Below, one piece after another: positions 7,656 to 57,143 of a DNA stretch of 64,000 nucleotides. The notes under the pieces were generated by a model that searched no databases, had not been told where the DNA came from, and was given only the letters and a program-made list of their open reading frames with translations. Made by a program: the position numbers and the translations under genes. Source of the DNA: Acidimicrobiia bacterium (GTDB taxonomy: Bacteria; Actinomycetota; Acidimicrobiia; Spongiisociales; ZC4RG35); NCBI GenBank assembly GCA_046484325.1, contig JAWOJB010000024.1, forward strand, positions 26,008 to 90,007, in the 5' to 3' direction. Each line of letters starts with the position of its first letter. Position 1 is the stretch's first letter.

Positions 7656-9029
7656 CTACTCGGGCAGGCGGGCGACCGCAAGGTCTGCCAGATGCCGGCG
7701 GACCTCGTCGACCCCCGCCTCGATGAGCACCACCGGACGGATGCCATGGCGCTCGAGCAGGGACGCGGCGAATGCCGAGCGGTAGCCGCTCGCGCACGCC
7801 ACCCATACCGGGCGACCCGGGTCGATCCCGTCGGGGAGCGGTCCGAGCAGGTCGGGCACGTAGCGGTGCAGACTTCCCTCCAGCCAGCCCTGCTCCCACT
7901 CTCCCGGCGAGCGGACGTCGAGGATCTGCTCACCCCGCCCGACCGCCTCCCCGAACCCGGCCACGTCGACGGTGTCGAACGAGGCCAGGGGAAGTCCGGC
8001 GGCAGCCCAGGCCTCCAGCCCCCACATCACCCCGCGGACGTCCTCGAACCCGATGCGTGCCAGCTGGACGACCGCCTCATCGAGATCCTGGCCTGCTTCG
8101 AGCACGAGGGCGATGGGGCCGTTGAAGGGGAGCAGCCAGCCGGCCCACGTGCCGAAGTCGTCTCGCAGCTCGAGGCCGAGTGACCCGGGGACATGACCTG
8201 CGGCGTGGACGCGGCGGGGACGGGCATCGACCAGCGTCACCTCGGCGGGGAGCGAGCGTATGTCGTCGACTGTCAGCTCGGGGATCACCGTCTCCGGCAT
8301 CGGGGCCGGCCCCATCAGGTTGATCGGCCCCATGCGGGCGTAGTAGACGGGATACGGTTGGAGGCCGGTGAGCTGGCCGGCGACGAAGGCGTCCTCGTCC
8401 GGGTAGGCGAGCACCGGGTTGGTCCGCCGCTCCTCGCCGATGGTCGACACGGTTCGGCCGGCCCCGCCGGCGGTGCAGAAGGATCCCTCTCCGTGGGTGG
8501 GGAAGAGCCCGAGGTGGTCGGGCAGGCCGGCGAGCCGGTGGACCGACCGGTACTGGAGCCTCACCAGCGAGTCCGCCCGGTCCGATCCGAGCAGGTCGGG
8601 CCGGCCGGCCGAGCCGACGAGCAGGCTCCCCCCGCTGAAGACGGCCACGGGCTCACCGCCGACGAGGACCAGGTAGCTCGTGTGCTCGGGGGTGTGCCCG
8701 GGGGTGTGGATGGGCCGCACGGCGAGGTCGTCGTCGCCGAGGTCCTCCAGGTGGAAGGCCGGCGTGTGGCGGAAGGCCGCCCCCGCCGCCGCCGGCAGGA
8801 CGAGCTCCGCCCCGGTCTGCGCCGCCAGCGCCAGGCCTCCCGACACGTAGTCGTTGTGAAGGTGGGTCTCGAGGACGAACCGGATGGCCGCCCCGGCTCG
8901 CTCCGCCGGCTCGAGGAACCGCCCGAGGTCGCGCTGGGGGTCGACGACCACCGCCCGATCCCCGTGGATCAGGAGATAGGTGGCATCGCCGAGCCCGGGG
9001 GTGCGGATCGTCTGTATGTCAACGGTCAT
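7656..9029 (-). CDS. MBL-fold metallo-hydrolase fused to two rhodanese domains
   Basis: HLHNDYVSG metal motif and HTPGHTPEH. Second rhodanese domain has active-site Cys loop VACASGYRS. Confidence 0.8.
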   Translation of the reverse strand: MTVDIQTIRTPGLGDATYLLIHGDRAVVVDPQRDLGRFLEPAERAGAAIRFVLETHLHNDYVSGGLALAAQTGAELVLPAAAGAAFRHTPAFHLEDLGDDDLAVRPIHTPGHTPEHTSYLVLVGGEPVAVFSGGSLLVGSAGRPDLLGSDRADSLVRLQYRSVHRLAGLPDHLGLFPTHGEGSFCTAGGAGRTVSTIGEERRTNPVLAYPDEDAFVAGQLTGLQPYPVYYARMGPINLMGPAPMPETVIPELTVDDIRSLPAEVTLVDARPRRVHAAGHVPGSLGLELRDDFGTWAGWLLPFNGPIALVLEAGQDLDEAVVQLARIGFEDVRGVMWGLEAWAAAGLPLASFDTVDVAGFGEAVGRGEQILDVRSPGEWEQGWLEGSLHRYVPDLLGPLPDGIDPGRPVWVACASGYRSAFAASLLERHGIRPVVLIEAGVDEVRRHLADLAVARLPE

Positions 9030-9044
9030 CGTGGCCCTCCTGGA

Positions 9045-14109: not shown

Positions 14110-15318
14110 TCAGCCGTCCGCCGGCTGTTCGGTCTCGGTGCCCTCACCTCCGTGCTCCTCCTCGCCGTGCCCGCCACCGACCGTGGCATCGAGGACCGCC
14201 AGCAGGATCATCACGACCACCGCCACCGCCCCGACGGCGGCGAGGAACTCGCCCCGGCTCACCCGGGTGCCGGGGCGGGAGGCGGCGAGCCCGGCGAAGG
14301 CCAGGATCCCCACCGAGATCACGACCGCCATGACCGGGGCGTACGCCGGGAACTGGAGGAAGACGTAGGCGGCGGGCAGCACGAGGAGGGCGATGGAAGC
14401 CACCCCGACCACGGGGAGCGACACGGCCGAGCCGAGCCGCCGCCTCGCCCGCTCCGTGTCGTCGGGGTCCTCGGCCGTGATCCCCTCCGGGAGGCCCAGG
14501 ACCTGGGCTACCTGGCCCACCGCCCAGCCCGCCAGGGCCGCTCCCGCCAGCAGCAGGACGATGGACGTGACCACCGGGACGACCACCACCGCCTCGGCCT
14601 CGGTCGGCACCGCGAAGGGGCCGGTGACGAGTGACGCCGTCAGCGCCCCTACCACGGCCCCGACCGCTACCCCGGCACCGGTGGCGACCCCGAGGCCCCC
14701 CTGCAACCTGAAGCCGGCGCCGTGCATGCCGGTGAGGGCGCGGGTGAGATGGGCGATCATCCCGCCGAGCACCCCGAACAGCATGACCAGCGCCAGCGTC
14801 GCCACGGCGGCGGCGGCGAGGGTGGCGGGTTCCTCGCCCTCGCCGATGGTCAGCGGGGCGAGGTCGATGGCACCCCGATAGGCGCCCTCCTCGCCGACCA
14901 CGGAGGCCCGGGGGGCCAGCCAGGGAAGGAGCAGCAGCGGGAGCGGGGCGGCGAGCACGAGCGCGGCCATGGCGCCGATCCGCCCGGCCAGCCGTCGGCG
15001 GGCGGACAGCGGCGCCGCCTCCACCGGACCGGAGGTGGGAGCGACGGGCTCGGGGCCTGCCGGCGGCGAAGCGGTGAGGGTGGCGACCGGGGAGGGCTCG
15101 GGCTCGGGTGCCGGCTCGGGCGTGGCCGTGGGCGGCGGCAGAGGGGTGTCGGACGCCGCCGGTGGCGCGGCCACCGCCACCGACCCGCCGCCCGCCCAGG
15201 TAGACAGGATCTCGTCGATGCTCGCGCCCGTGGCCTTGGCCCGGGCCTCGGCCGAGCGACGCACGATCAGCTCGGGCGCATTGAGGGCCGAGGCGGCCGC
15301 AGCCAGGTTCTCGCTCAT
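14110..15318 (-). CDS. hypothetical integral membrane protein with HhH-like N-terminus and Pro/Ala-rich linker
   Basis: Best start MSENLAAAASALNAPELIVRRSAEARAKATGASIDEIL at 15316-15318. Many TM segments follow. The upstream 89 codons of ORF 14110..15585 are Arg-rich junk. Confidence 0.55.
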   Translation of the reverse strand: MSENLAAAASALNAPELIVRRSAEARAKATGASIDEILSTWAGGGSVAVAAPPAASDTPLPPPTATPEPAPEPEPSPVATLTASPPAGPEPVAPTSGPVEAAPLSARRRLAGRIGAMAALVLAAPLPLLLLPWLAPRASVVGEEGAYRGAIDLAPLTIGEGEEPATLAAAAVATLALVMLFGVLGGMIAHLTRALTGMHGAGFRLQGGLGVATGAGVAVGAVVGALTASLVTGPFAVPTEAEAVVVVPVVTSIVLLLAGAALAGWAVGQVAQVLGLPEGITAEDPDDTERARRRLGSAVSLPVVGVASIALLVLPAAYVFLQFPAYAPVMAVVISVGILAFAGLAASRPGTRVSRGEFLAAVGAVAVVVMILLAVLDATVGGGHGEEEHGGEGTETEQPADG

Positions 15319-15383
15319 CGGCGGCGGAGGATAGCCAGCCGATCCGGTGGGGCGGCCTTCGGGGCCGCCTGCGCTGCACCCCG

Positions 15384-15863: not shown

Positions 15864-16769
15864 TCACGCCCGGAGGAAGTCCTCGATCCCCGCTGCGATC
15901 TCCTCGGCGTGGGTCCAGGGTGCCTCGTGGAGGGCCCCCACGAGCTCGAGCACCCGTACGTCCGGCAGCCGGGAGGCGAGGTCGTACTGCCAGCGCGGGT
16001 CGGCGAGCTGGTCGGCGGTGGGGATCACGACCAGGGCGGGGATGGCGACCTGGCCGATCCACGGCGTGGAGTCGAAGCGGAGCAGCGCGAAGGTGGCGGC
16101 CGCCCCGGCCTCCGGGTCCCGCCGGTGGGTCTCCTCCCACAGCCAGCGGGCGTGGCGGCGGTCGACGGCACCCACCCCCAGCAGGTAGGCGGCGCGCGCC
16201 TCGGCGTTGCCGATCCCGGTGATCCGCTCCCAGGACCGGATCACCCAGGCGGCGATGGCGCGCGTGAGGCGATGGAACGGTGGATGGTGGGCGAAGGTGG
16301 CCACCAGGATGAGGCGGTCGACCACCCCGGGGTGGCGGTAGGCGAGGGCCTGGGCGATGGCGCCGCCCATCGAGTAACCGACGACCGCACCGCGGCCCAC
16401 CCCGACCGCGGCCATGATCCCCGCGATGTCGTCGGCGATGTCCTCGACCTCGAACCGGGCGACGGTCTTCGGCGACAGGCCGTGGCTCCGGTGGTCGAGG
16501 GTGATCACCCGGTGACCCTCGGCGAGGAGCGGCGCCACCCGGTACCACTCGGCGAGAGAGGAGCCTCCCAGGCCGTGGATGAGGACGACGGGCGTGCCAT
16601 CGGGGTTGCCGAACTCCCGTACGAGGAACTCGCTGTCGCCCACGAACACGGTCCGACCCGGGATGCGCCAGGGATGCTCCTGGGGCGAGCGGAAGCGGGG
16701 GGTGATGATCGGCCCGAGGACCCGCCAGGCGAGGAGCAGTCCGATCAGGACGCGCAGCCGCCGGATCAC
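15864..16769 (-). CDS. alpha/beta hydrolase
   Basis: GTG start (VIRRLRVL) at 16767-16769. [10 protein letters not shown] and nucleophile elbow GYSMGG. Upstream part of ORF 15864..17621 is junk in this frame. Confidence 0.75.
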
Positions 16770-17197
16770 GGAGTACCCCGCAGCGGGGCCACGGCGAAGG
16801 CGTGCTCGGCGACCGGCCGGCCGCCGAGCAGGTGCTCGTCGACGATCCGGTCGACCACCTCGACGGTGACGCCGCGGTACCAGACACCCTCCGGGTAGAC
16901 CACGGCGATCGGTCCCTGCTCGCAGATGCGCAGGCAGTCGGCCTTGGTTCGGAGGACACGTCCGGCGCCGGGGCCGGTGGCGACGGGCTCGGCGGAGGGA
17001 TCGTCCTTCCAGGCCGGAGGAGCCGAGGCCAGCCCGAGCTCTTTCAGGCGGCGCTTGAGGTGCCTCCACACGACGGTCGACTCCTCCCGGGTGGAGCAAC
17101 GGGGGGTAGTCTGTTCGGCACAGAGGAAGATGTGCCGCTCGACGGTGCCGATGGAGAGGGCCTCGGCGATCGCAACGAGGCGTTCGTCCCGGTCCAT
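16766..17197 (-). CDS. thioredoxin-like [2Fe-2S] ferredoxin domain protein
   Basis: [17 protein letters not shown]...[12 protein letters not shown]...[11 protein letters not shown]. Four-Cys pattern of thioredoxin-like ferredoxins. 4-nt overlap with the hydrolase. Confidence 0.65.
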
Positions 17198-17208
17198 GGG
17201 GCTGGACG

Positions 17209-18252
17209 CTAGCGCTCCGGGGCCCGGCCCCGGTCGAGACGGATCCGCCCCTGGGGCCCGTCGACGATTCGGCCGATCTCGAAAAACCCCGGGAGCGCGA
17301 GGAGCGACTCGAGCCCGTCGGCCGGCACGGCGATGAGCAGCCCACCGCTGGTCTGGGCATCGGCCAGAAGCCGGCGATCCCGTTCGCTCCCGCCGGACAG
17401 GTACGGGGACACCGCGACCAGGTTGCGCGAACTCCCCCCCGGGTAGTGGCCGGCGTCCAGAAGCTCGGGGGCGCCCGGGAGGACGGGGACGGAGGCGACG
17501 TCGACCACGGCCGAGACCCCGGAGGCCGACAGCATCTCGCGCAGGTGGCCGAGCAGGCCGTACCCGGTGACGTCGGTCGCTGCGCCTGCCCCCGCCGCGA
17601 GCATGGCCCCGGCGGCACCATCGTTGAGGGCGACCATGGAGTCGACCGCCGCGGCCAGCACGTCGTCCGGGCACGCTCCTCGCTTCAGGGCGGTGGTGAT
17701 GATGCCGGTGCCGATCGGCTTGGTGAGCACGAGCACATGACCGGGCCGGGCCCCGGCGTTGGTGACCACCTGGTCGGGATCGACCAGGCCGGTGACGGCG
17801 AACCCGTACTTGGGCTCCGGGTCGTCGATCGAATGGCCGCCGACGACGGTGCAGCCGGCCAGGGCCATGACGTCCGCGCCGCCCAGCACGACCCGCTCGA
17901 GCAGCTCGAACGGCAGAGCATCACGAGGCCACCCGACCAACTGGAGAGCGCTCAGCGGTGTGCCCCCCATGGCATACACGTCCGAGAGGGCGTTGGCGGC
18001 GGCGATCCGGCCCCAGTCGTAGGCGTCGTCGACCACCGGGGTGAAGAAGTCCACTGTCTGCACGAGGGCGCGTCCATCCCCCAGCCGCACGACGCCCGCG
18101 TCGTCGGCCGTTGCAAACCCCACGATCAGGTCGGGGGATACGGTCGCCGGATGCTCGTGCAAGGGGCGCAGGACCTGCGCCAGCTCGGCCGGGCCGAGCT
18201 TGCACGCTCAACCGGCGCCGTGGCTGTACCTGGTGAGCCGGTGGTCGGTCAT
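17209..18252 (-). CDS. selD: selenide, water dikinase (selenophosphate synthetase), selenocysteine-containing
   Basis: ORF 17209..18162 lacks the conserved N-terminus. Extending upstream in frame gives [28 protein letters not shown], with TGA at 18208-18210 at the position of the catalytic Cys/Sec of SelD. Confidence 0.8.
18165..18207 (-). ncRNA. putative bacterial SECIS element just 3' of the selD UGA
   Basis: mRNA GCGUGCAAGCUCGGCCCGGCCGAGCUGGCGCAGGUCCUGCGC forms two hairpins. The distal one, GCGCAGG-UC-CUGCGC, resembles the fdhF apical loop (GGUC). Confidence 0.5.
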
Positions 18253-18450
18253 CTCGGGCACGCTACCGGTGCGCCGTCACCTGGGCAGACCCTCGCCGAC
18301 GACCATGTCGAAGTCAGCGCGGTCCCCATCGCCCCGGGCCGGCGTAGGGCACGTAGTCGGGGAGGTCGACCACCAGTCGCAAGTCCCGACCGTGCCACAG
18401 GGATGGGAGTTCCGGCCGGGGCCGAAGGTGGCCTATCCTCTTGGCCTCCC

Positions 18451-30633: not shown

Positions 30634-31227
30634 TCACCCCGGTCGCCGGGGCCGCAACTCGGCGACGTCGGCCTGGGTGTCGACGTCGCGGGGTGCCAGC
30701 CGTTCGACCCACACCTCCTCCACCCACTCGGGATGGGCCTGGAGGAGTCGTCCGGCGCCCTCGTCTCCCTCGAGCGACATGAGGCGCGGCCAGAGCCGGC
30801 GGTCGAGCAGCACCGGGTTTCCCCACGAGTAGCGGTATTTGGGGACCACGGCCCGGGCATGCGAGCGGGCGTGTGCCGCCACGAGCGCGGCGACGACGCC
30901 GGGGTCGACGTCCGGTTGGTCCCCGAGCACGATGAGTGCGGCGTCGGCTCGTGAGAGGCGGGTGAGGGCATCGAGGCCCACCCTGATCGATGAGGCGAGG
31001 CCGTCCTGCCACTCGGGGTTCTCGATGAGGCCACAATCGGCGAGGTCGGCGTCGGACCTCACCCGGTCGGCGTCGGCTCCTATGACCACCCAGATCTCGT
31101 CGACCGGGAACCTGCGTGTGCGCTGCACCACGTGGCCGAGCAGCGTGCGTCCTCCCCATGGCTCGAGCTGCTTGGGCCGTCCCAACCGGCGCGAGCCTCC
31201 GGCGGCGAGGACGAGTGCGGCGATCAT
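30634..31227 (-). CDS. mocA: MobA-like NTP transferase / molybdenum cofactor cytidylyltransferase
   Basis: [22 protein letters not shown]-terminus. ORF 30634..32046 upstream of the ATG at 31225-31227 is junk. Confidence 0.75.
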   Translation of the reverse strand: MIAALVLAAGGSRRLGRPKQLEPWGGRTLLGHVVQRTRRFPVDEIWVVIGADADRVRSDADLADCGLIENPEWQDGLASSIRVGLDALTRLSRADAALIVLGDQPDVDPGVVAALVAAHARSHARAVVPKYRYSWGNPVLLDRRLWPRLMSLEGDEGAGRLLQAHPEWVEEVWVERLAPRDVDTQADVAELRPRRPG

Positions 31228-32296
31228 CGTCTGCCGAGTCTCCGCACCTCGCCCTGCAGAACGGGCGGCCGGCGGTGGCCGTACCGCGCCTCGGTCATCT
31301 CCGCCAGGATCGCCACCGCCACCTCGCCGGGCGTGACGGCTCCGATGTCGAGACCGATCGGCCCGTGGATCCGCTCGACCTCGGAGGGCTGATGCCCGGC
31401 GGCCAGCAGCCGCTCGCGACGGCGGGCTGCCGTCGCCGTGCTGCCCATGGCGCCCAGGTACCGGACGGGCCGGCCCAGCACCAATGGCCACAGCGGGTCC
31501 TCGAACCGGGCATCGTGGCTCAGCACCACGACGAACGCCCGGTGATCGAACGTGAGGCGGTCGGCGATCTGGTCGGGCCAGCCGACCAGCAGCTCGGCGG
31601 CGTCGGGAAACCGGGCCTCGGTGGCGAAGGCCGCCCGGCTGTCCGAGACGGTCACCCGGTAGCCGAGATGGGTGGCGAGGGTCGTGAGCGACTGGGCGAT
31701 GTGGACCGCCCCGAAGACGAACAGCCGGGGAGGCGGCGCCAGCGTCTCGACGTAGATCTCGTGGAGCCCGTAGGCGAGCGTCTCGTCGCGCTCCCGGTCC
31801 ATGAGGGCGAGGGCGTCGGCCACGACGTCGGAAGCCACCTCGGAGGGCAGCGAGCCGGCCAGGATGGTGCCGGAGAGATCGACGACCGCCGACGCCCCGA
31901 CGGCCGGCCCTCCGACCGCCGTGAGCCTGGCACCGAGTCGCTCGGCGGCGAGCAGTCCACGGCAGGCCTCGAGAACCGCCGGTGTCACCAGGGCTCCACG
32001 AAGACCTGGATCGTGCCCCCACAGGCCAGGCCCACCTCGAATGCATCCTCGTCGGCGATGCCGTAGGTGACGAGGATGGGCTCGCCGGACTCGATGACCC
32101 GCAGTGCGTGGAGCACCACGTCGTTCTCGACGCAGCCGCCCGACACCGACCCCTCCATGTCCCCGTCCGAGGAGACGACGAGCTTGGATCCGACCGGCCG
32201 AGGGGCCGACCCCGAGACCCGCACGACCGTGGCCACCGCCACCCGCTTGCCGGCCTCTGCCCACCGATCGCGTACGTCGAGCTCCGATCGCATCAT
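31224..32296 (-). CDS. xdhC: XdhC/CoxF-family Mo-hydroxylase maturation factor, split into two frames at 31985-31988
   Basis: N-terminal XdhC_CoxI domain [25 protein letters not shown]...GGCVE..FVEPW-stop (31985..32296). The Rossmann part continues in the +1 frame from GTG 31986 (VTPAVLE...[14 protein letters not shown]...). Junction is GTGA. Confidence 0.6.
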
Positions 32297-33420
32297 CTCC
32301 TCCGTTCCGGGACCGACTCGAGCATCGCCACCAGCGTCGCCAGATCGTCGAAGGTCCCCGCCGCCAGGAAGTCGTCGACGTGCGGGAGGGCGGCGACCAT
32401 GCCCCTCGTCTCGGGAGCGTACCCGGGCCTCCCTGCCAGCGGGTTGAGCCAGATCACCCGGTGGACGGAGCGGCGAAGCCTGCCCATCTCGTCGGCGAGC
32501 ACCTGGGGCTCGCCGCGATCCCATCCGTCGGAGACGATGAGCACGATCGGCCCGCCCCGGGTCATCCGCCGGCTCCACTCGTGGTTGAAGGCTCGCAGGC
32601 ACTCACCGATGCGCGTGCCGCCCGACCAGTCGTGCACGGCGCCGGCCACCTCCCGGAGTGCGTCGGATGGCTCGCGTCGGGCCAGCTCACGGGTCACCCG
32701 GGTCAGCCGGGTCGAGAAGACGAAGCTCTCGAGCCGTCCCAGGCGGCTGCGGGCGGCGTGGGCGAAGTACAGCAGCATCTCGGAGTACCGCTCCATCGAG
32801 CCGGAGACGTCGGCGATGAAGATCAGCGGCCGGGTCCGGGACCGGCGCTCGGTGGTGGCCAGGCTGAGCACGTCGCCGCTCGGGCCCACACTGCGCCGGA
32901 GGGTGCGCCGGAGGTCGGGGCGGTCCCCGGCCCGGGCGGTTCGGCGGCGGCGGCTCGTGGCGGCGGCCGGGCGCCACAGCATTCGGGCGATCATCGATCG
33001 CACCTCGGCCGCCTCCGCCGGCGTGAGCTCGGCGAAGTCCTTCCGTGCGAGGCGCTCGGCCCACGAGGCCCCGGTGACGGCAACCTGGTCGTCGAGCCCT
33101 GCATCCCCGTCCCCTTCGCCACCCTCGGCCGAGGCCTGGATCGACCATGTCCGCGGGCGGGATGCCGCCACCACCACGGCAGGGCCGTCGGCGTCCCCCC
33201 CGAAGAACTCGCGGAACACCCGATCGAAGACCGGGATCTGCTCGCGGTGGGTGACGACGAGCGAGCGGAATGCGTGGTACACGTCCCCCCCGGAGGCGAG
33301 GCCGACGACCTCGCACGCGGTGGCGAGATCGGCGGCGGTGGTCGGGACGACCGGAATCCCCTCGCTCCGCAGGGCGCGCGAGAACTCGACGAGCGTGGAG
33401 GCGCGTTCCACGCCCGGCAC
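32293..33420 (-). CDS. coxE: VWA domain protein, CoxE family
   Basis: MIDAS DVSGSM. Conserved CoxE N-terminus [23 protein letters not shown]. Confidence 0.85.
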
Positions 33421-33435
33421 CCTATCGGAGCGCCC

Positions 33436-34533
33436 TCAGAGCGGGAAGCGGAGGATGCCGACCACGCCGTGCGGGTCGACCGGGGTGGCGATCTCGAGCT
33501 GATCGACCGCCCCGCCGCCGGCCACGACGGCCTCCATCAGGTAGCCGATCACGTCCTCGACCTCGAAGACGGCGCTCCCGCACACCGCGCACTCCCGACC
33601 CGTGCGGGCCAGCCACCCACACTCGCCGCAGACGACGCCGGGCTTCTCGACGCGTCCGGCGACGAGGAGCCGGTCGACCGCCCTGGCGTTGGCGGCCTCG
33701 AGCAGCGTGGCGGTGCCGGCCGCCCCGGATCCGGTCTCGACGGCCGCGGCCGCGGCCTCGGCGGCTTCCTCCTGACGGGCAGCCCACACCGTGGCGGCGT
33801 GATCGGCCACCCGGCGTCGGAGCTCCGGCAGGGTGAGCGTGTGGGGGTCGACCACCACCCGCCCCACGGGGAGGGCCTGGAGGTACGCGTGAAGGTGGGG
33901 GACGAGCTCGTCGAGCGTCTCCTGGTGACCGCCCAGCAGGAGCGCATCGAAGGGCCGGTCCCGGTGGGTCTCGAGCAGTCGGGCCGCTGCCTCCTTCAGC
34001 ATGCGGGCGGTCTCGTGCTCGGCCCGCCGTCGCACACCGTGCTCTTCGTAGCCCGAGAAGCCCCCGAAGTTCGACTTGCCGATGTCGGCCTCGAGTGCCG
34101 CGCCCAGCGGCTCGACCGTTCCGTCGTCTGCGAGGTAGATCCGGCAACGGCGGCGATCGGCGACGACGATGCCCATGTGGAGCGGACGGGGTCGGGAGCG
34201 CAGCGGGCGGAGATAGGCCCGGGGCCCGATCGAGCCGTGATCCCAGACCAGATGGTCCAGGAAGGACATCTCATGGATGTCGTCGGTCGACGACATGAAC
34301 AGGGCCACGCCGTTCGCGGGCTGGGCATCGATCTTCGGCACGAGGCCCTGGATGCGCTCGCAGTCGCGCAGCACGGCCTTGGCGATGCCCCGCTCCATGC
34401 TGTCGGCGGCGGCGCGGATCGGCTTCAGCAAGTCGGTGATGGCCGCCGAGGCGCTTCCGGCAGGGCGATCGAGATACAGCGAGATGAGCGATCCCGACGG
34501 CGAGCGGAGCTCGGCGAGCGAGGTGAGGTCCAT
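33436..34533 (-). CDS. eRF1/Pelota-like (bacterial-archaeal release-factor-like, Vms1-type) protein with C-terminal zinc ribbon
   Basis: Three-domain layout. NFGGFSG loop in place of GGQ, CGECGW...CAVCGS zinc ribbon, and eRF1 domain-3-like end GVVGILRF. Confidence 0.55.
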   Translation of the reverse strand: MDLTSLAELRSPSGSLISLYLDRPAGSASAAITDLLKPIRAAADSMERGIAKAVLRDCERIQGLVPKIDAQPANGVALFMSSTDDIHEMSFLDHLVWDHGSIGPRAYLRPLRSRPRPLHMGIVVADRRRCRIYLADDGTVEPLGAALEADIGKSNFGGFSGYEEHGVRRRAEHETARMLKEAAARLLETHRDRPFDALLLGGHQETLDELVPHLHAYLQALPVGRVVVDPHTLTLPELRRRVADHAATVWAARQEEAAEAAAAAVETGSGAAGTATLLEAANARAVDRLLVAGRVEKPGVVCGECGWLARTGRECAVCGSAVFEVEDVIGYLMEAVVAGGGAVDQLEIATPVDPHGVVGILRFPL

Positions 34534-34689
34534 GGATCCTCCCCGGAGAACGGTGGTCGGACGGACGAGGTCGACCCGACGGATGGAGGTCCGCGAGGAG
34601 GCGCCGCTCGTCTCACAGGCATGCGAAACGCCCCGGCATCTGAACCGAGCGTACCTCGGCGCGGGCCCTCGTGCCCCGGTCGAGCGGCC

Positions 34690-35571
34690 CTATCCGGGGG
34701 CGGCAGCGTCGATCCCGCGCCGCCGCACCCGCTCCACGTCCTCGCGGTACTTCAGCACCACGCCGAGCGTGTCGTCGATCAGCGCCGGGTCGAGCTCGCG
34801 GGCGCCGAGCACCCGCAGCGCGTGCGCCCAGTCGATGGTCTCGGCAACCCCCGGGGGTTTGAACAGGTCCAGGGAGCGGAGGTCGCCCATGGCGGCGGCG
34901 AGCTGGCGGGCGAGGCGCTCGTCGACGTCGGGTACCTTGGCCCGGATGATCGACACCTCGCGGTCGAAATCGGGATAGTCCACCCAGTGGTAGATGCACC
35001 GGCGCTTGAGGGCGTCGTGGATCTCACGGGTCCGATTGCTGGTGATGATCACGACCGGCGGCACGGCGGCGGTGATCGTGCCGATCTCGGGGATCGTGAC
35101 CTGGAAGTCCGACAACAGCTCGAGCAGGAATGCCTCGAACTCCTCGTCGGCCCGGTCGAGCTCGTCGATCAGGAGCACGGGCCGCTTCCCGACGGCCGCC
35201 GACTCGACGGCATGGAGCAGGGGCCTGGCGAGCAGGTAGTCGCGGCTCATGATGTCGGCCACCTCGGCCTGGCCGCCCTCTCCCCGGGCCTCGATGAGCC
35301 GGATCGCCAGCATCTGGCGGGCATAGTCCCACTCGTAGAGGGCGTGTCCGACGTCGAGGCCCTCGTAGCACTGGAGCCGGATGAGCTCGGTATCGAGCAT
35401 GTCGGCGAGGACCTTCGCCACCTCGGTCTTCCCGACCCCCGCCTCTCCCTCCAGGAAGAGCGGACGCCCCAGCCGAAGGGCGAGGTGGACGCTCACGGCC
35501 AGGCTCCGATCGGCCACGTAGTCGCGCTCGGCGAAGGCCTCGGCGATCGCTTCGACCGTGTCGGGGACCAT
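34690..35571 (-). CDS. coxD: MoxR-family AAA+ ATPase (CoxD-like)
   Basis: Walker A GEAGVGKTE, Walker B LLIDELDRA, arginine finger region. Confidence 0.85.
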   Translation of the reverse strand: MVPDTVEAIAEAFAERDYVADRSLAVSVHLALRLGRPLFLEGEAGVGKTEVAKVLADMLDTELIRLQCYEGLDVGHALYEWDYARQMLAIRLIEARGEGGQAEVADIMSRDYLLARPLLHAVESAAVGKRPVLLIDELDRADEEFEAFLLELLSDFQVTIPEIGTITAAVPPVVIITSNRTREIHDALKRRCIYHWVDYPDFDREVSIIRAKVPDVDERLARQLAAAMGDLRSLDLFKPPGVAETIDWAHALRVLGARELDPALIDDTLGVVLKYREDVERVRRRGIDAAAPG

Positions 35572-35630
35572 CTGGGCACCATAGCCAGCACCGGATCGAC
35601 GTTGGATGGCGGCGTGACCACAATGGAGGC

Positions 35631-35966
35631 GTGTTCAGACCCGACATCCCCGAGGCACCCTCGGTCTCGCCCGAGGAGGCGAAGGCCCTGGTGGAGGAGG
35701 GTGCCCTACTCGTCGACATCCGTGAGGTCGAGGAGTGGCAGGCGGCTCGCATCCCGGGAGCCGAGTTCAAGCCGCTCTCGACGATCAACGACTGGTGGCC
35801 CGACCTCCCGCTGGATCGAACCGTCGTCCTCTACTGCCGGTCGGGGAACCGCTCGGCTCACGCCGTGAACGCCCTCGTGGGTCAGGCGGGGCGGACCAAC
35901 GTGCTCAACCTCACGGGGGGCATCATCGCCTGGGACCGGGCCGGTCTGCCGGTGGAGGATGCCTAG
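35631..35966 (+). CDS. single-domain rhodanese-like sulfurtransferase
   Basis: Active-site loop YCRSGNRS. Confidence 0.75.
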   Translation: MFRPDIPEAPSVSPEEAKALVEEGALLVDIREVEEWQAARIPGAEFKPLSTINDWWPDLPLDRTVVLYCRSGNRSAHAVNALVGQAGRTNVLNLTGGIIAWDRAGLPVEDA

Positions 35967-36348
35967 CGCCCTCGAGCTCGCCGTAGCCGATCACCTGGCC
36001 GGCGTCGGCCGGAGACTGGCGGCCGGGCGCCTCCGACGGCGTAGCTGGAGGACCATGCTCCCGGTGGCGCTCGACCCGGTGGAGGCCGGGCTGGCGACGG
36101 TGGGGGGAGGGCTGCTGGGCCTGGCGGCCGGAGTCGGGTTGGGCGTCTCCGGCCCGCTCTCGCTCGTGCTGGCGGTCGTGGCGGCGCTGGCGGCCCTGGT
36201 CGGCGTGGCGTCGATGTCGGTGGTGGAGGCGGCCGACCGGGCGGTTCGCAGGCTCGAGGCGCACCTGTCGATGCCCGAACTGCTCGATGCCGTCGAAGGG
36301 CTCGGCCCGGTCGAGGTGACGGCGCTCGCCGGCCTCAGGCGGACCTGA
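35959..36348 (+). CDS. hypothetical membrane protein
   Basis: ATG overlaps the rhodanese stop. Gly/Ala/Leu-rich TM segments. Convergent 14-nt overlap with coxM. Confidence 0.4.
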   Translation: MPSALELAVADHLAGVGRRLAAGRLRRRSWRTMLPVALDPVEAGLATVGGGLLGLAAGVGLGVSGPLSLVLAVVAALAALVGVASMSVVEAADRAVRRLEAHLSMPELLDAVEGLGPVEVTALAGLRRT

Positions 36349-37182
36349 TCGCCTCCGTCAACGCCCGCCTCGTCATCACCTTGGCCAGGTGGGACTTGTA
36401 CTCCTCGGACCCGTAGAGGTCCTCGAGCACCGTGAGCCCCTCCAGCGCCCGCTCGGCGGCGGCGGCCACGGCGGCGTCGGATCCGTCGGTCCCGATCAGC
36501 GCTTCCGCCACGCCCACGGCGAGAGTGGCCTTGGTGCCCACACCGGTGATCGCCACCCGGCAGTCGCCGATGGAGCCGTTCGAGCGCGACACCCAGGCCG
36601 CCGCTCCTGCGACCGCGTAGTCGGTGTGGCCGCCCCGGCGCCCCAGTTTCTCGTAGGCGGTGGCGCCCGCCCGTCGGGGGATCCGGATCTCGGTGAGGAT
36701 CTCGTCGGGCTCGAGGGCCGACGTGAGGGCGTCGACGAAGAAGTCGTCGGCCGCGATCTCCCGGGTGCCGGCCGGGCCCTGCGCCACCATCGTGGCGCCG
36801 AGTGCCAGGATGGCGGCCGGCTGGTCGGCTGCGATGTCGGCGTGGGCCACCGAGCCGCAGGTGGTGCCCCGATTCCTGATCTGGGCGTCCCCGGTGTAGG
36901 CGGCGGCGCTCCGCAGCGCGTCCGGCACGAGCCCGGACTCGGCCGTCTGGCGATGGCGGACGAGGGCTCCCAGCGACACGTGGTCGCCTCCGTCCTCGAT
37001 CCGGTCGAGCCCGGGGATCCGCCCGATGTCGACCAGCAGTTCGGGGGAGAACAGGCGCATCTTCATGAGCGGCAGCAGGCTCATCCCGCCCGCCAGCACC
37101 TTCGCCGAGTCGGCGCCCGCCAGGGCGGACACCGCCTCGTCGAGGGTGGCCGGGGCGACGTAGTCGAACGGTCGGGGGTACA

Positions 37183-37183
<1 letters not shown>
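36335..37183 (-). CDS. coxM: Mo-hydroxylase FAD-binding medium subunit (CoxM/XdhB-like)
   Basis: Start MYPRPFDYVAPATLDEAV with GGGAGG-type RBS. FAD-binding domain and CO-dehydrogenase flavoprotein C-terminal domain. Confidence 0.85.
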
Positions 37184-39563
<2,380 letters not shown>

Positions 39564-39567
<4 letters not shown>

Positions 39568-40061
39568 GCCCGCACCCCCTCGGTCTCCCACTCCGCCGGC
39601 GGGGGCGTCTCACCCCGCATCCTGGCGGCCGCGTACTCGATGGCCTTCACGATGTTGTGGTAGCCGGTGCACCGGCAGAGGTTGCCTTCGATGCCGTGGC
39701 GGATCTCGGCCTCGGTCGGGCTCGGGTTCTCCTGGAGAAGGCCGACCGCCTGGATGATCATGCCCGGGGTGCAGAACCCACACTGGAGACCGTGCCGCTC
39801 CCAGAAGCCCTCCTGCACCGGGTGCAACTCGCCGTCGGCGGTGAGTCCCTCGATCGTGGTCACGTCTGAGCCCTCGGCCTGACCGACGAGCACCATGCAC
39901 GACTTGACGGTGGCCCCGTCGATCAGAACGGTGCACGCGCCGCAGTACCCGCTCTCGCAGCCGACGTGGGTCCCGGTGAGGCCGAGCTCGTCCCGCAGGA
40001 GGTGGACGAGGAGCGTCCGCGGTTCCACGGCGACCGCCACCTGCCTGCCGTTGACGGTCAT
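39564..40061 (-). CDS. coxS: Mo-hydroxylase [2Fe-2S] small subunit (CoxS)
   Basis: [11 protein letters not shown] and [14 protein letters not shown] cluster motifs. Start MTVNGRQV. Confidence 0.9.
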
Positions 40062-40218
40062 GGACACCTGCAAGCGAGCCTCCTTCGATGACCGCCGCCG
40101 ACGCTATCACCGGCGGTCGCGACGCGTCGCCGAGACGGGGAGGTTTGGAGGAGACCCGGCTTCCCCGGGCACCGGGCCCTCGAGGTTGGCAGAATGCGGT
40201 GGGTCAGGAGGTCGAGGC

Positions 40219-55675: not shown

Positions 55676-56007
55676 GATGCCGTCCCCGCGTCCCGCTCGA
55701 GCAGCCCGAGGGCGAGACGGAAGTGGGCGAGGCCCTCCGACTGGCGGATGGCGCGAGGGCTGCGCCGGAAGCGGGTGGCGATCTGCTCGTGCGTCTCACC
55801 TCGAGAGCGCAGGAGGAGGACGCGACGCTGGCGCGCGCTCGTTGCTCGCAGTGGTGGCGGCCCCGAGCGCGGGATCTGCGTCCACGTGATGATGCGCACG
55901 ACGTGGGCAGGGCTGCGTCGGATCTTCGCCCCGATCTGGGCCGGCTCGAGGCCGAGGGTCGTCATGGCGAGCACCCTGCGCTCGATCGGTCGGAGATGGC
56001 TGGTCAC
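55672..56007 (-). CDS. tandem-HTH (sigma-70 region-4-like) DNA-binding protein
   Basis: Two repeats RRVLAMTTLGLEPAQIGAKIRRSPAHVVRI and RRVLLLRSRGETHEQIATRFRRSPRAIRQ. GC3-rich frame. Confidence 0.5.
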   Translation of the reverse strand: MTSHLRPIERRVLAMTTLGLEPAQIGAKIRRSPAHVVRIITWTQIPRSGPPPLRATSARQRRVLLLRSRGETHEQIATRFRRSPRAIRQSEGLAHFRLALGLLERDAGTAS

Positions 56008-57143
56008 GGGTTCCCCTTTCTCCGGTCCTCGTCAAACCTAGCGGGTATTCGCCTTCGTGCACCAGGGTGTGGTGCCGCCGGCACAGCAGAATCAGGTTAT
56101 CGAGGTCGGTCCGACCGCCGTCGGCCCAATGGACGAGATGGTGAACGTCGCACCACCGGGCAGGCCGGTCGCAGGCCGGGTACCGGCAGTGCCGGTCCCG
56201 GGCGACCACCGCCTTCCGCTGGGCGGGGGTGACGGTGCGCGAGGCCCGGCCCACGTCGAGGGGCTGGCAGCGTCCCCTGGTGATCACCCGGGTGACCCTG
56301 GCATCGCAGGCGAGGCGGCGGGCGGTTTCGGCGGGGATCGACCCGGTGTGATCGACCTCGCAGACGTATCCCGCGCGACGCTCCAGCGTCTCGATGTCCA
56401 CCAGCACGGTGAGGTGGGGCGGCTCGCCGCCCGACGTCGTCTCGCCCCGATCGAGGAAGCTCCGACAGACGCCGACCATCGCCTCCGCCCGTCGGCTCCC
56501 CGCGGTGGGCCGGTGCTCGCCCGCTGCATGTGCAGCGGGCGGCTGCATCGCCGCCTCCAGGGCGGTGATCACGGGTCTCCCCCGACTCCGGATCGAGCAG
56601 GCCGTCGATGCGCACCATGCCCTCCCAGGTGCGGGCCACGTGGACGTAGGACCTCTCGGTCATCTCGAGCAGCGCATCGGGGCCGTCGAGGTTGTGCCGC
56701 CAGTACTCGATCGCCCGCTGTAGGTCGCGCACCGTGAGCCGGCCGGCCACCTCGAGGAGGGTGTCCTCGTGCTCCCGAAAGATCTCCGGATGGGCGCCGG
56801 CCGCCCTCGCGAGGAGACGGACCTTGGAATAGGAGAGGTCGCCGGTTTCGAAGGCGGCGGCGGTCCCGGGCATACCCTCGAGCGAGCGGGCCACGGCGAC
56901 CCTCTCGCGGGCGGTGGAGTTCGCCATGTCGCACGTGAGCGCCAGGAAGCGGCTGGTCGAGAGGATGCCGTCCCGTACGAACGTCTGCCGCCGGTCGGCC
57001 TCGGCGGTGAGCCTCAGGAATCGGGCCTGGAGGACGTCGAGGGCCCGGCCCAGCTCGGTCAGCTCCTCCTCGATCTCGTGGTCGGCGTAGTCCGAGACAT
57101 CGGAGGCGATCAGGCCATCGATGACGGAGCGGAGAGCGCTCAC
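55796..57143 (-). pseudogene. DUF222/13E12-repeat HNH endonuclease, frameshifted
   Basis: N-terminal DUF222 region in ORF 56097..57143 (MSALRSVIDGLIASDVSDY...LLDPESGE). HNH part in the +1 frame ORF 55796..56572 (ITALEAAM...RRLACDARVTRV...RDRHCRYPAC...CRRHHTLVHEGEY). Junction about 56570-56590. True C-terminus probably near 56000-56040; the rest of the ORF is read-through. Confidence 0.55.

Follow-up and report, generated by a model that had tools for sequence, protein, structure and literature searches.

The stretch of DNA analyzed here, referred to as the window, comprises 64,000 nucleotides (nt) of contig JAWOJB010000024.1 from an uncultured Acidimicrobiia bacterium and has a G+C content of 71.3%. 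Its minus strand carries a selD gene, coding for selenophosphate synthetase, whose reading frame contains a TGA codon close to the 5' end. This codon, UGA codon 15 of the transcript, very probably encodes selenocysteine (Sec) in the N-terminal glycine-rich loop of the protein, and it is followed by hairpins specific to the Sec-encoding form of the gene. The parts of the reading frame were located as follows:

17209-18252, minus strand: full-length selD coding sequence, 347 codons including the probable Sec15 plus the TAG stop at 17211-17209, defined by translation and by profile and structure matches
18208-18210, minus strand: in-frame TGA, read as the Sec codon (residue 15) from its place in the catalytic cysteine (Cys)/Sec column of the alignments
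18211-18252, minus strand: 14 N-terminal codons 5' of the TGA, conserved and covered by the SelD profile, missing from the automatic call
17209-18162, minus strand: shortened open reading frame (ORF) of 317 amino acids (aa) with a TTG start at 18162, as given by the mechanical ORF list and by the JGI/IMG call

The shortened ORF was 100% identical to a public JGI/IMG call (P0001, "selenide, water dikinase", 317 aa), and the SelD N-terminus was absent from both the mechanical and the IMG versions. In JGI metagenome 3300076001 the window is represented by contig Ga0645781_04065. An earlier note on this DNA, made from the letters alone, had proposed that the called ORF begins after the SelD N-terminus and that reading upstream in frame leads to an ATG at 18250-18252. 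Both statements were borne out by translation: the gene starts with the ATG at 18252-18250 of the minus strand, and its frame is free of stops from the TGA (18210-18208) to the TAG (17211-17209). No in-frame start codon was present in the selD reading frame between the TGA and the conserved Cys17-Lys18, so that initiation at TTG 18162 would yield a product without the catalytic loop. A downstream start with an intact, Cys-containing N-terminus, which the note had named as the finding that would speak against it, was likewise not found there.

To place the product in a family, the 347 residues were searched against profiles with Cys in place of the stop. They matched TIGR00476 (selD) with 396.2 bits (cutoff 125), the first position of the profile aligning to residue 5, upstream of the TGA, and NF002098 with 362.3 bits (cutoff 299). 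The precomputed Pfam matches of P0001 included PF00586 and PF02769 (AIRS and AIRS_C, the N- and C-terminal domains of AIR synthase-related proteins). Furthermore, the structure of Escherichia coli SelD (3u0o) was matched over residues 4-324 (E=4e-83), with residue 15, the TGA codon, aligned to Cys17. In this structure-sequence alignment HGAG-U15-A-C17-K18, where U denotes Sec, was paired with HGAG-C17-G-C19-K20. In the Aquifex aeolicus SelD structures 2yye and 2zod, the same residue aligned to a Cys introduced at the site of the Sec that this enzyme naturally contains. Judged by these matches, the gene is a bona fide selD encoding selenophosphate synthetase (selenide, water dikinase), and the TGA stands, as had been claimed, exactly at the catalytic Cys/Sec site. 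The product is about 50% identical over its full length (an estimate from the alignment) to the Cys-containing SelD of the E. coli type and shares its catalytic loop, which reads GAG-C-G-C-K with a Cys codon in the latter and GAG-U-A-C-K with UGA in the window gene.

The conservation of the TGA was then considered. The identical gene, TGA included, was present in three independent metagenome assemblies (L081-L083), and the codon was kept in relatives with 84% (L086), 73% (L084/L085), 71% (L087), and 70% (L001) identity. A survey with one genome per GTDB species yielded 80 SelD loci, 73 of them with a recognizable motif, and the catalytic column held TGA in 17 of these species-representative loci and TGC or TGT in 56 (hereafter Sec-type and Cys-type). 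The TGA loci came from Acidimicrobiia, Gemmatimonadales, other Actinomycetota, Gaiellales, Latescibacterota, and one deltaproteobacterium, and the TGA share of 23% is near the published figure for prokaryotic SelD genes, 19% of which contain Sec, "always in the same position" (PMC4561486). The motif RLTx[YF]SHGAG preceded the TGA in frame in every Sec-type locus, and it is also conserved in the Cys-type homologues. In a SelD tree built from the protein body, with the region of the putative insertion element excluded, at least eight changes between the Sec and the Cys state were counted. Among the homologues in protein databases, the closest (69-84% identity) were only about 310-317 aa long and lacked the N-terminus, and those with 60-67% identity were full-length (340-347 aa).

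Downstream of the UGA, three helices were predicted, with RNA positions numbered from the U of UGA as 1:

18200-18182, minus strand: hairpin 1 (HP1), AGCUCGGC-CCG-GCCGAGCU, positions 11-29, -13.2 kcal/mol, lying between the UGA and HP2
18181-18165, minus strand: hairpin 2 (HP2), GGCGCAG-GUC-CUGCGCC, positions 30-46, stem of 7 bp, 3-nt loop at 18174-18172, -11.3 kcal/mol
18206-18201 with 18161-18156, minus strand: outer stem CGUGCA/UGCACG, positions 5-10 with 50-55, enclosing HP1 and HP2 in the minimum-energy fold

The 55 nt downstream of the UGA folded at -32.7 kcal/mol and a 76-nt region at -44.5 kcal/mol (z = -4.3). These structures were compared with a published model of the bacterial selenocysteine insertion sequence (bSECIS; SECIS without the prefix for the element in general), which specifies an apical loop of 3-9 nt on a stem of 4-16 bp, a G at the first or second loop position that is usually followed by G or U, 16-37 nt from the UGA to the loop, and a minimum free energy of -7.5 kcal/mol or lower (PMC13188914). 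HP2, which begins 26 nt after the UGA, passed all four constraints with its 3-nt loop on a 7-bp stem, the loop sequence GUC with the G at +37, a spacing of 33 nt to the loop, and -11.3 kcal/mol. HP1 fell outside the model: its loop, CCG, lacks a G in either of the first two places, and at 15 nt its distance from the UGA is just short of 16. The consensus bSECIS used by bSECISearch is a single stem-loop, unlike the window selD with its second conserved and covarying hairpin in the spacer.

The hairpin described in the earlier note is indeed present at 18181-18165, but the 2-nt loop given to it is sterically impossible, and in the predicted fold a GUC triloop closes the 7-bp stem. HP1, directly upstream, had not been mentioned. 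The likeness to the SECIS of fdhF that the note had drawn held in part. The E. coli fdhF element was verified as a 46-mer found with 100% identity inside fdhF in thousands of genomes; like HP2, it is a coding-sequence stem-loop 3' of the UGA with G-U in its apical loop, and GCAGGUC..UGC is common to both. Their geometry differs, however. Counted on the verified sequence, the minimal fdhF hairpin begins 11 nt downstream of the UGA and has the loop GGUC with the G at +23, and its upper stem carries a bulged U. HP2 has a triloop GUC whose G lies 14 nt further, at +37, on a perfect 7-bp stem without a bulge, and 26 nt precede it, 19 of which form the extra hairpin HP1. On sequence and predicted fold, HP2 thus fits a consensus-type bSECIS and not a copy of the fdhF type.

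The evidence that carries this interpretation is comparative. Base pairing at the aligned positions was compared between 18 Sec-type and 56 Cys-type sequences (Mann-Whitney test). For HP2, 6.33 of the seven pairs could form in Sec-type genes versus 3.61 in Cys-type genes (p = 5e-8), and all seven were present in 12 of the 18 Sec-type sequences and in none of the 56 others. HP1 showed a smaller separation (6.78 versus 5.32 of eight pairs, p = 2e-4). The outer stem showed none, with 3.50 of six pairs in Sec-type and 3.88 in Cys-type genes; it was dropped as a conserved part of the SECIS on this account and is probably clade-specific or incidental.

In the alignment of the 18 Sec-type sequences, 87.4% of the cells of HP1 and HP2 were paired (84.7% and 90.5%, respectively), as opposed to 28-41% when the partners were slid. 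Changes on both sides of a pair were found at 8 of the 15 pairs, four of seven in HP2 and four of eight in HP1. In HP2, for example, a G-C pair is replaced by C-G in L018 and L046 and by A-U in L045, and in HP1 a first-position change from Gly to Ser or from Gly to Arg was matched by a synonymous change in an Ala codon. The covariation score was 0.251; none of 500 shuffles, with a mean of 0.138, came up to it. HP2 was recovered independently by RNAalifold, and it was kept in L001 and L087 with a one-base bulge where Arg is replaced by Ser. RNAalifold also offered another hairpin, which takes in the UGA (alignment columns 4-10 with 19-25); it showed no compensatory changes and excludes HP1, and it was not adopted. 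As a control for relatedness on the tree, each of 21 Sec-type genes was compared with its nearest Cys-type neighbor: HP2 was the better paired in all 21, by a mean of 2.4 pairs, with a Wilcoxon p of 5e-5 that is indicative only, the Cys neighbors being re-used. Cys-type homologues lacked the HP2 pairing, except for a few. The Cys-type selD genes L008, L016, and L038 kept six of the seven HP2 pairs together with the peptide ELAQVLR; these look like SECIS remnants after Sec-to-Cys conversion, such as have been reported in other families (PMC1794560).

Several observations weigh against the reading of this TGA as a Sec codon served by HP2. A perfect-stem hairpin answering to the bSECIS description (-7.5 kcal/mol or lower, 16-37 nt on, loop rules) followed 20% of the 1068 TGA trinucleotides of the window, and one as stable as HP2 followed 6.5% of them; a 55-nt downstream fold as stable as that of selD (-32.7 kcal/mol) was rarer, at 0.56%. 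A single hairpin in a window of 71% GC is thus weak evidence of structure exceeding chance. Both hairpins lie within conserved coding sequence, where pairing follows in part from the peptide KLGxAEL. The HP2 loop read GUN in all 18 Sec-type sequences, but its GU belongs to a conserved Val codon that was also present in 42 of the 56 Cys-type genes and hence does not discriminate. Searches with the Rfam SECIS models gave no family at the gathering score in the whole window and only noise at E values up to 10 in 18100-18270. Two Sec-type loci, L054 and L068, as well as the Acetomicrobium selD given in BSepDB (PMC13326102), have a hairpin with a G-containing loop at the position of HP1 instead. 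Finally, no tRNA gene of any kind, tRNA-Sec included, was detected by ARAGORN in the 64-kb window, and tblastn with E. coli SelA and SelB matched neither the window nor any of the Sec-type loci. Nevertheless, HP2 exceeds chance because of the comparative evidence, that is, its Sec-specific pairing, its covariation, and the tree control. More generally, calls of a SECIS from a single sequence after a TGA have a high false-positive rate in GC-rich genomes, and comparative evidence is needed there.

As for the Sec machinery, profiles for SelA, SelB, SelU, and YqeB/YqeC (Pfam, NCBIfam) had no match among essentially all sizeable ORFs of the window. The same tblastn search detected selA/selB beside selD in 14 Cys-type loci of Actinomycetes or Firmicutes, which served as a positive control, and ARAGORN found no tRNA-Sec within 10 kb in the loci of 17 Sec-type relatives. 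The lack of selA, selB, and tRNA-Sec in the window is therefore uninformative, since the Sec-type relatives also have them unlinked from selD. The three genes selA, selB, and selC are presumably carried elsewhere in the genome of the source Acidimicrobiia bacterium, as the earlier note had also expected. This is made more plausible by a preprint on Actinomarina, another order of the Acidimicrobiia, in which all complete genomes have selA, selB, selC, and selD dispersed and about half of the genomes encode SelD in its Sec form; the Rfam SECIS models likewise fail on them, bacterial SECIS elements being poorly represented in Rfam (bioRxiv 10.64898/2026.04.03.716425). Under this interpretation, SelB would bring Sec-tRNA(Sec) to the ribosome while the UGA occupies the A site and would compete there with release factor 2; HP2 is proposed as the SelB-binding apical hairpin of the SECIS, and HP1 would act as an accessory helix that may compact the 26-nt interval between the UGA and HP2.

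Additionally, the window was scanned twice, on the basis of G+C at third codon positions, for other genes interrupted by TGA; only junctions of adjacent genes (33438, 30636) or antisense frames were returned, and the second scan, the only one in which hairpins were tested, gave no bSECIS-like hairpin at any candidate, although such scans are insensitive to N-terminal Sec codons, selD itself, with an upstream arm of only 22 codons, not having been recovered.

Explanations that dispense with Sec were weighed against the same data. The TGA could be a nonsense mutation in a pseudogene or an error of sequencing or assembly, as would agree with gene callers taking it as a stop and with the lack of Sec machinery in the window. 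This is very improbable, and the conservation data effectively refute it: the same TGA recurs in the three independent assemblies and at the same codon in the relatives with 70-84% identity and in 17 species representatives of several phyla, with the frame intact on both sides, and the hairpins behind it are Sec-type-specific and covarying. It is hardly conceivable that the 317-aa ORF is the true product and the upstream similarity a relic. An in-frame TTG does exist at 18162, but its product would lack the entire glycine-rich loop, with the catalytic Cys/Sec, Cys17, and Lys18 (C17, C19, and K20 in E. coli); moreover, the SelD profile aligns from residue 5, the 14 codons 5' of the TGA are conserved at the protein level in every Sec-type locus, and the stretch from the TGA to Cys-Lys contains no start codon. 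Somewhat less remote, yet still improbable, is a read-through of the UGA without SelB and tRNA-Sec, by near-cognate insertion of Cys or Trp or under stimulation by hairpins that would then form a Sec-independent recoding signal. The machinery missing from the window would suit it, and for eukaryotic SPS genes it has been suggested that stable stem-loops by the UGA favor read-through without Sec (PMC4561486). Against it stand the location of the TGA at the classical Sec/Cys site of SelD, the exact fit of HP2 to the SelB-type bSECIS model, and the fact that a related order of the Acidimicrobiia with Sec-SelD possesses selA, selB, and selC (bioRxiv 10.64898/2026.04.03.716425); furthermore, most of the listed stop-to-stop ORFs of the window are bounded by TGA, and there is no sign of a general reassignment of UGA. 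The reading of selD as a selenoprotein gene cut short by the ORF caller, put forward in the earlier note, thus stood on family membership, the alignment column of the TGA, its conservation, and the Sec-specific structure with its covariation.

A further alternative leaves Sec in place and concerns the hairpin recognized by SelB. HP1 might be the SelB-binding SECIS with HP2 as the accessory helix, or both might form one composite three-way element. The position of HP1 is where L054, L068, and Acetomicrobium (PMC13326102) have their G-loop hairpin (GGAC loop at +24 in the two loci), HP1 covaries too, with four of its eight pairs changed on both sides, and its loop is GUCGA in L004 and GCA in L003. 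The HP1 loop, however, is unconserved (CCG, CCC, UCU, GCA, and others). In the window gene a G is absent from its first two positions, the 15-nt spacing of HP1 is below the 16 nt of the model, and HP1 separates Sec-type from Cys-type genes far less well than HP2. We consider this alternative doubtful, and HP2 is favored as the SelB-binding hairpin of the window clade, with HP1 as a spacer or accessory helix, because of the conserved loop of HP2, its full fit to the model, and its having the strongest contrast between Sec-type and Cys-type genes.

The loci L054 (9592-9651) and L068 (10025-10084), from Gaiellales and another metagenome-assembled genome of Actinomycetota, carry a Sec-type selD without HP2. 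Both have instead a 7-bp hairpin at the HP1 position with a GGAC loop at +24 to +27, which reads GUCCCAA-GGAC-UUGGGAC in L054. At least two SECIS layouts therefore exist within selD. It can tentatively be suggested that the tandem layout of the window is a distinct bSECIS class, in which a covarying but loop-unconstrained HP1 abuts a distal HP2 with a G-U loop at the outer limit of the spacing. Such a class would be distinct both from the single-hairpin model and from the selD genes with a G-loop hairpin at the HP1 position (L054, L068, Acetomicrobium), although it may have been depicted before by Mariotti et al. 2015 (Fig. SM6.1). If it were real, it would be common to the Sec-type selD of Acidimicrobiia, Gemmatimonadales, Latescibacterota, and others, the folding of HP1 would set the effective distance from the UGA to the SelB site, and it might couple Sec insertion to unwinding by the ribosome.

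The window selD belongs to a kind of bacterial selenoprotein gene that is well known and common, and what follows from it is mainly a correction of the annotation. Among bacterial selenoproteins, SelD and FdhA have the widest distribution (PMC1794560), Sec-containing SelD ranking second; the bSECIS elements of Sec-containing SelD genes have already been described (PMC4561486), and according to database curators SelD is frequently misannotated owing to the UGA (PMC13326102). The Sec-containing SelD proteins of Haemophilus influenzae, A. aeolicus, and Actinomarina belong to the same family (TIGR00476) and have the same single Sec/Cys position as the window protein. Known genes of this kind, like the window selD, have a bSECIS in the coding sequence right after the UGA and are usually truncated by automatic annotation (PMC4561486, PMC1794560, PMC13326102). 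The window gene differs from them in coming from an uncultured Acidimicrobiia lineage of 71% GC, with selD unlinked from selA and selB, and in having two conserved tandem hairpins, of which the G-loop one lies at the far end of the allowed spacing. The current understanding of selenoprotein biology is unchanged by the gene. The IMG call needs 30 more codons with Sec at residue 15, and the same extension is due for the close relatives, which stand systematically at about 310-317 aa in protein databases. The lineage is thereby a probable user of selenocysteine, whose selenium-activating enzyme would itself be selenium-dependent.

Directly downstream of selD, two genes on the same strand were found:

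16766-17197, minus strand: 143-aa thioredoxin-like 2Fe-2S ferredoxin-like ORF, beginning 11 nt past the stop of selD; matched by the 2Fe-2S ferredoxin profile NF041612 with E=6e-14, which is under the cutoff of that profile, and by no Pfam family
15864-16769, minus strand: alpha/beta hydrolase, overlapping the ferredoxin-like ORF by 4 nt

The gene order of the clade is greA, then the divergent selD, the 143-aa ferredoxin-like ORF, and the alpha/beta hydrolase; the latter pair directly follows selD in L084 and L086 and lies close to it in L087. The ferredoxin-like ORF is probably co-transcribed with selD, and the three genes could form a small operon. A role of the pair as redox partner or in selenium delivery is speculation. 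Downstream of the hydrolase, a called gene of 402 aa (14173-15381, minus strand) had no Pfam or NCBIfam match.

At a greater distance, a CoxSLM-like molybdenum hydroxylase cluster occupies 30637-40103 on the minus strand. Its genes included:

39564-40103, minus strand: 2Fe-2S subunit
37183-39609, minus strand: large subunit, CO dehydrogenase-like but below the equivalog cutoffs
36335-37399, minus strand: FAD subunit
34690-35634, minus strand: CoxD-like AAA ATPase
33436-34689, minus strand: aRF1/baeRF-like protein, between the AAA and VWA genes
32293-33435, minus strand: CoxE-like VWA protein

A MocA-like cytidylyltransferase was also found in this cluster, and no marker of selenium-dependent hydroxylases reached threshold in it. 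Elsewhere on the minus strand, a DUF222/HNH endonuclease gene was spread over two overlapping frames in 55796-57143 (DUF222 N-part at 56097-57143, DUF222 C-part and HNH at 55796-56572), which is probably due to a frameshift or an assembly error. Rhodaneses have been proposed as selenium carriers, and a metallo-beta-lactamase fold fused to tandem rhodanese domains, like that of persulfide dioxygenase-sulfurtransferase enzymes, was found at 7656-9044 (minus strand), with no link to selD in the window.

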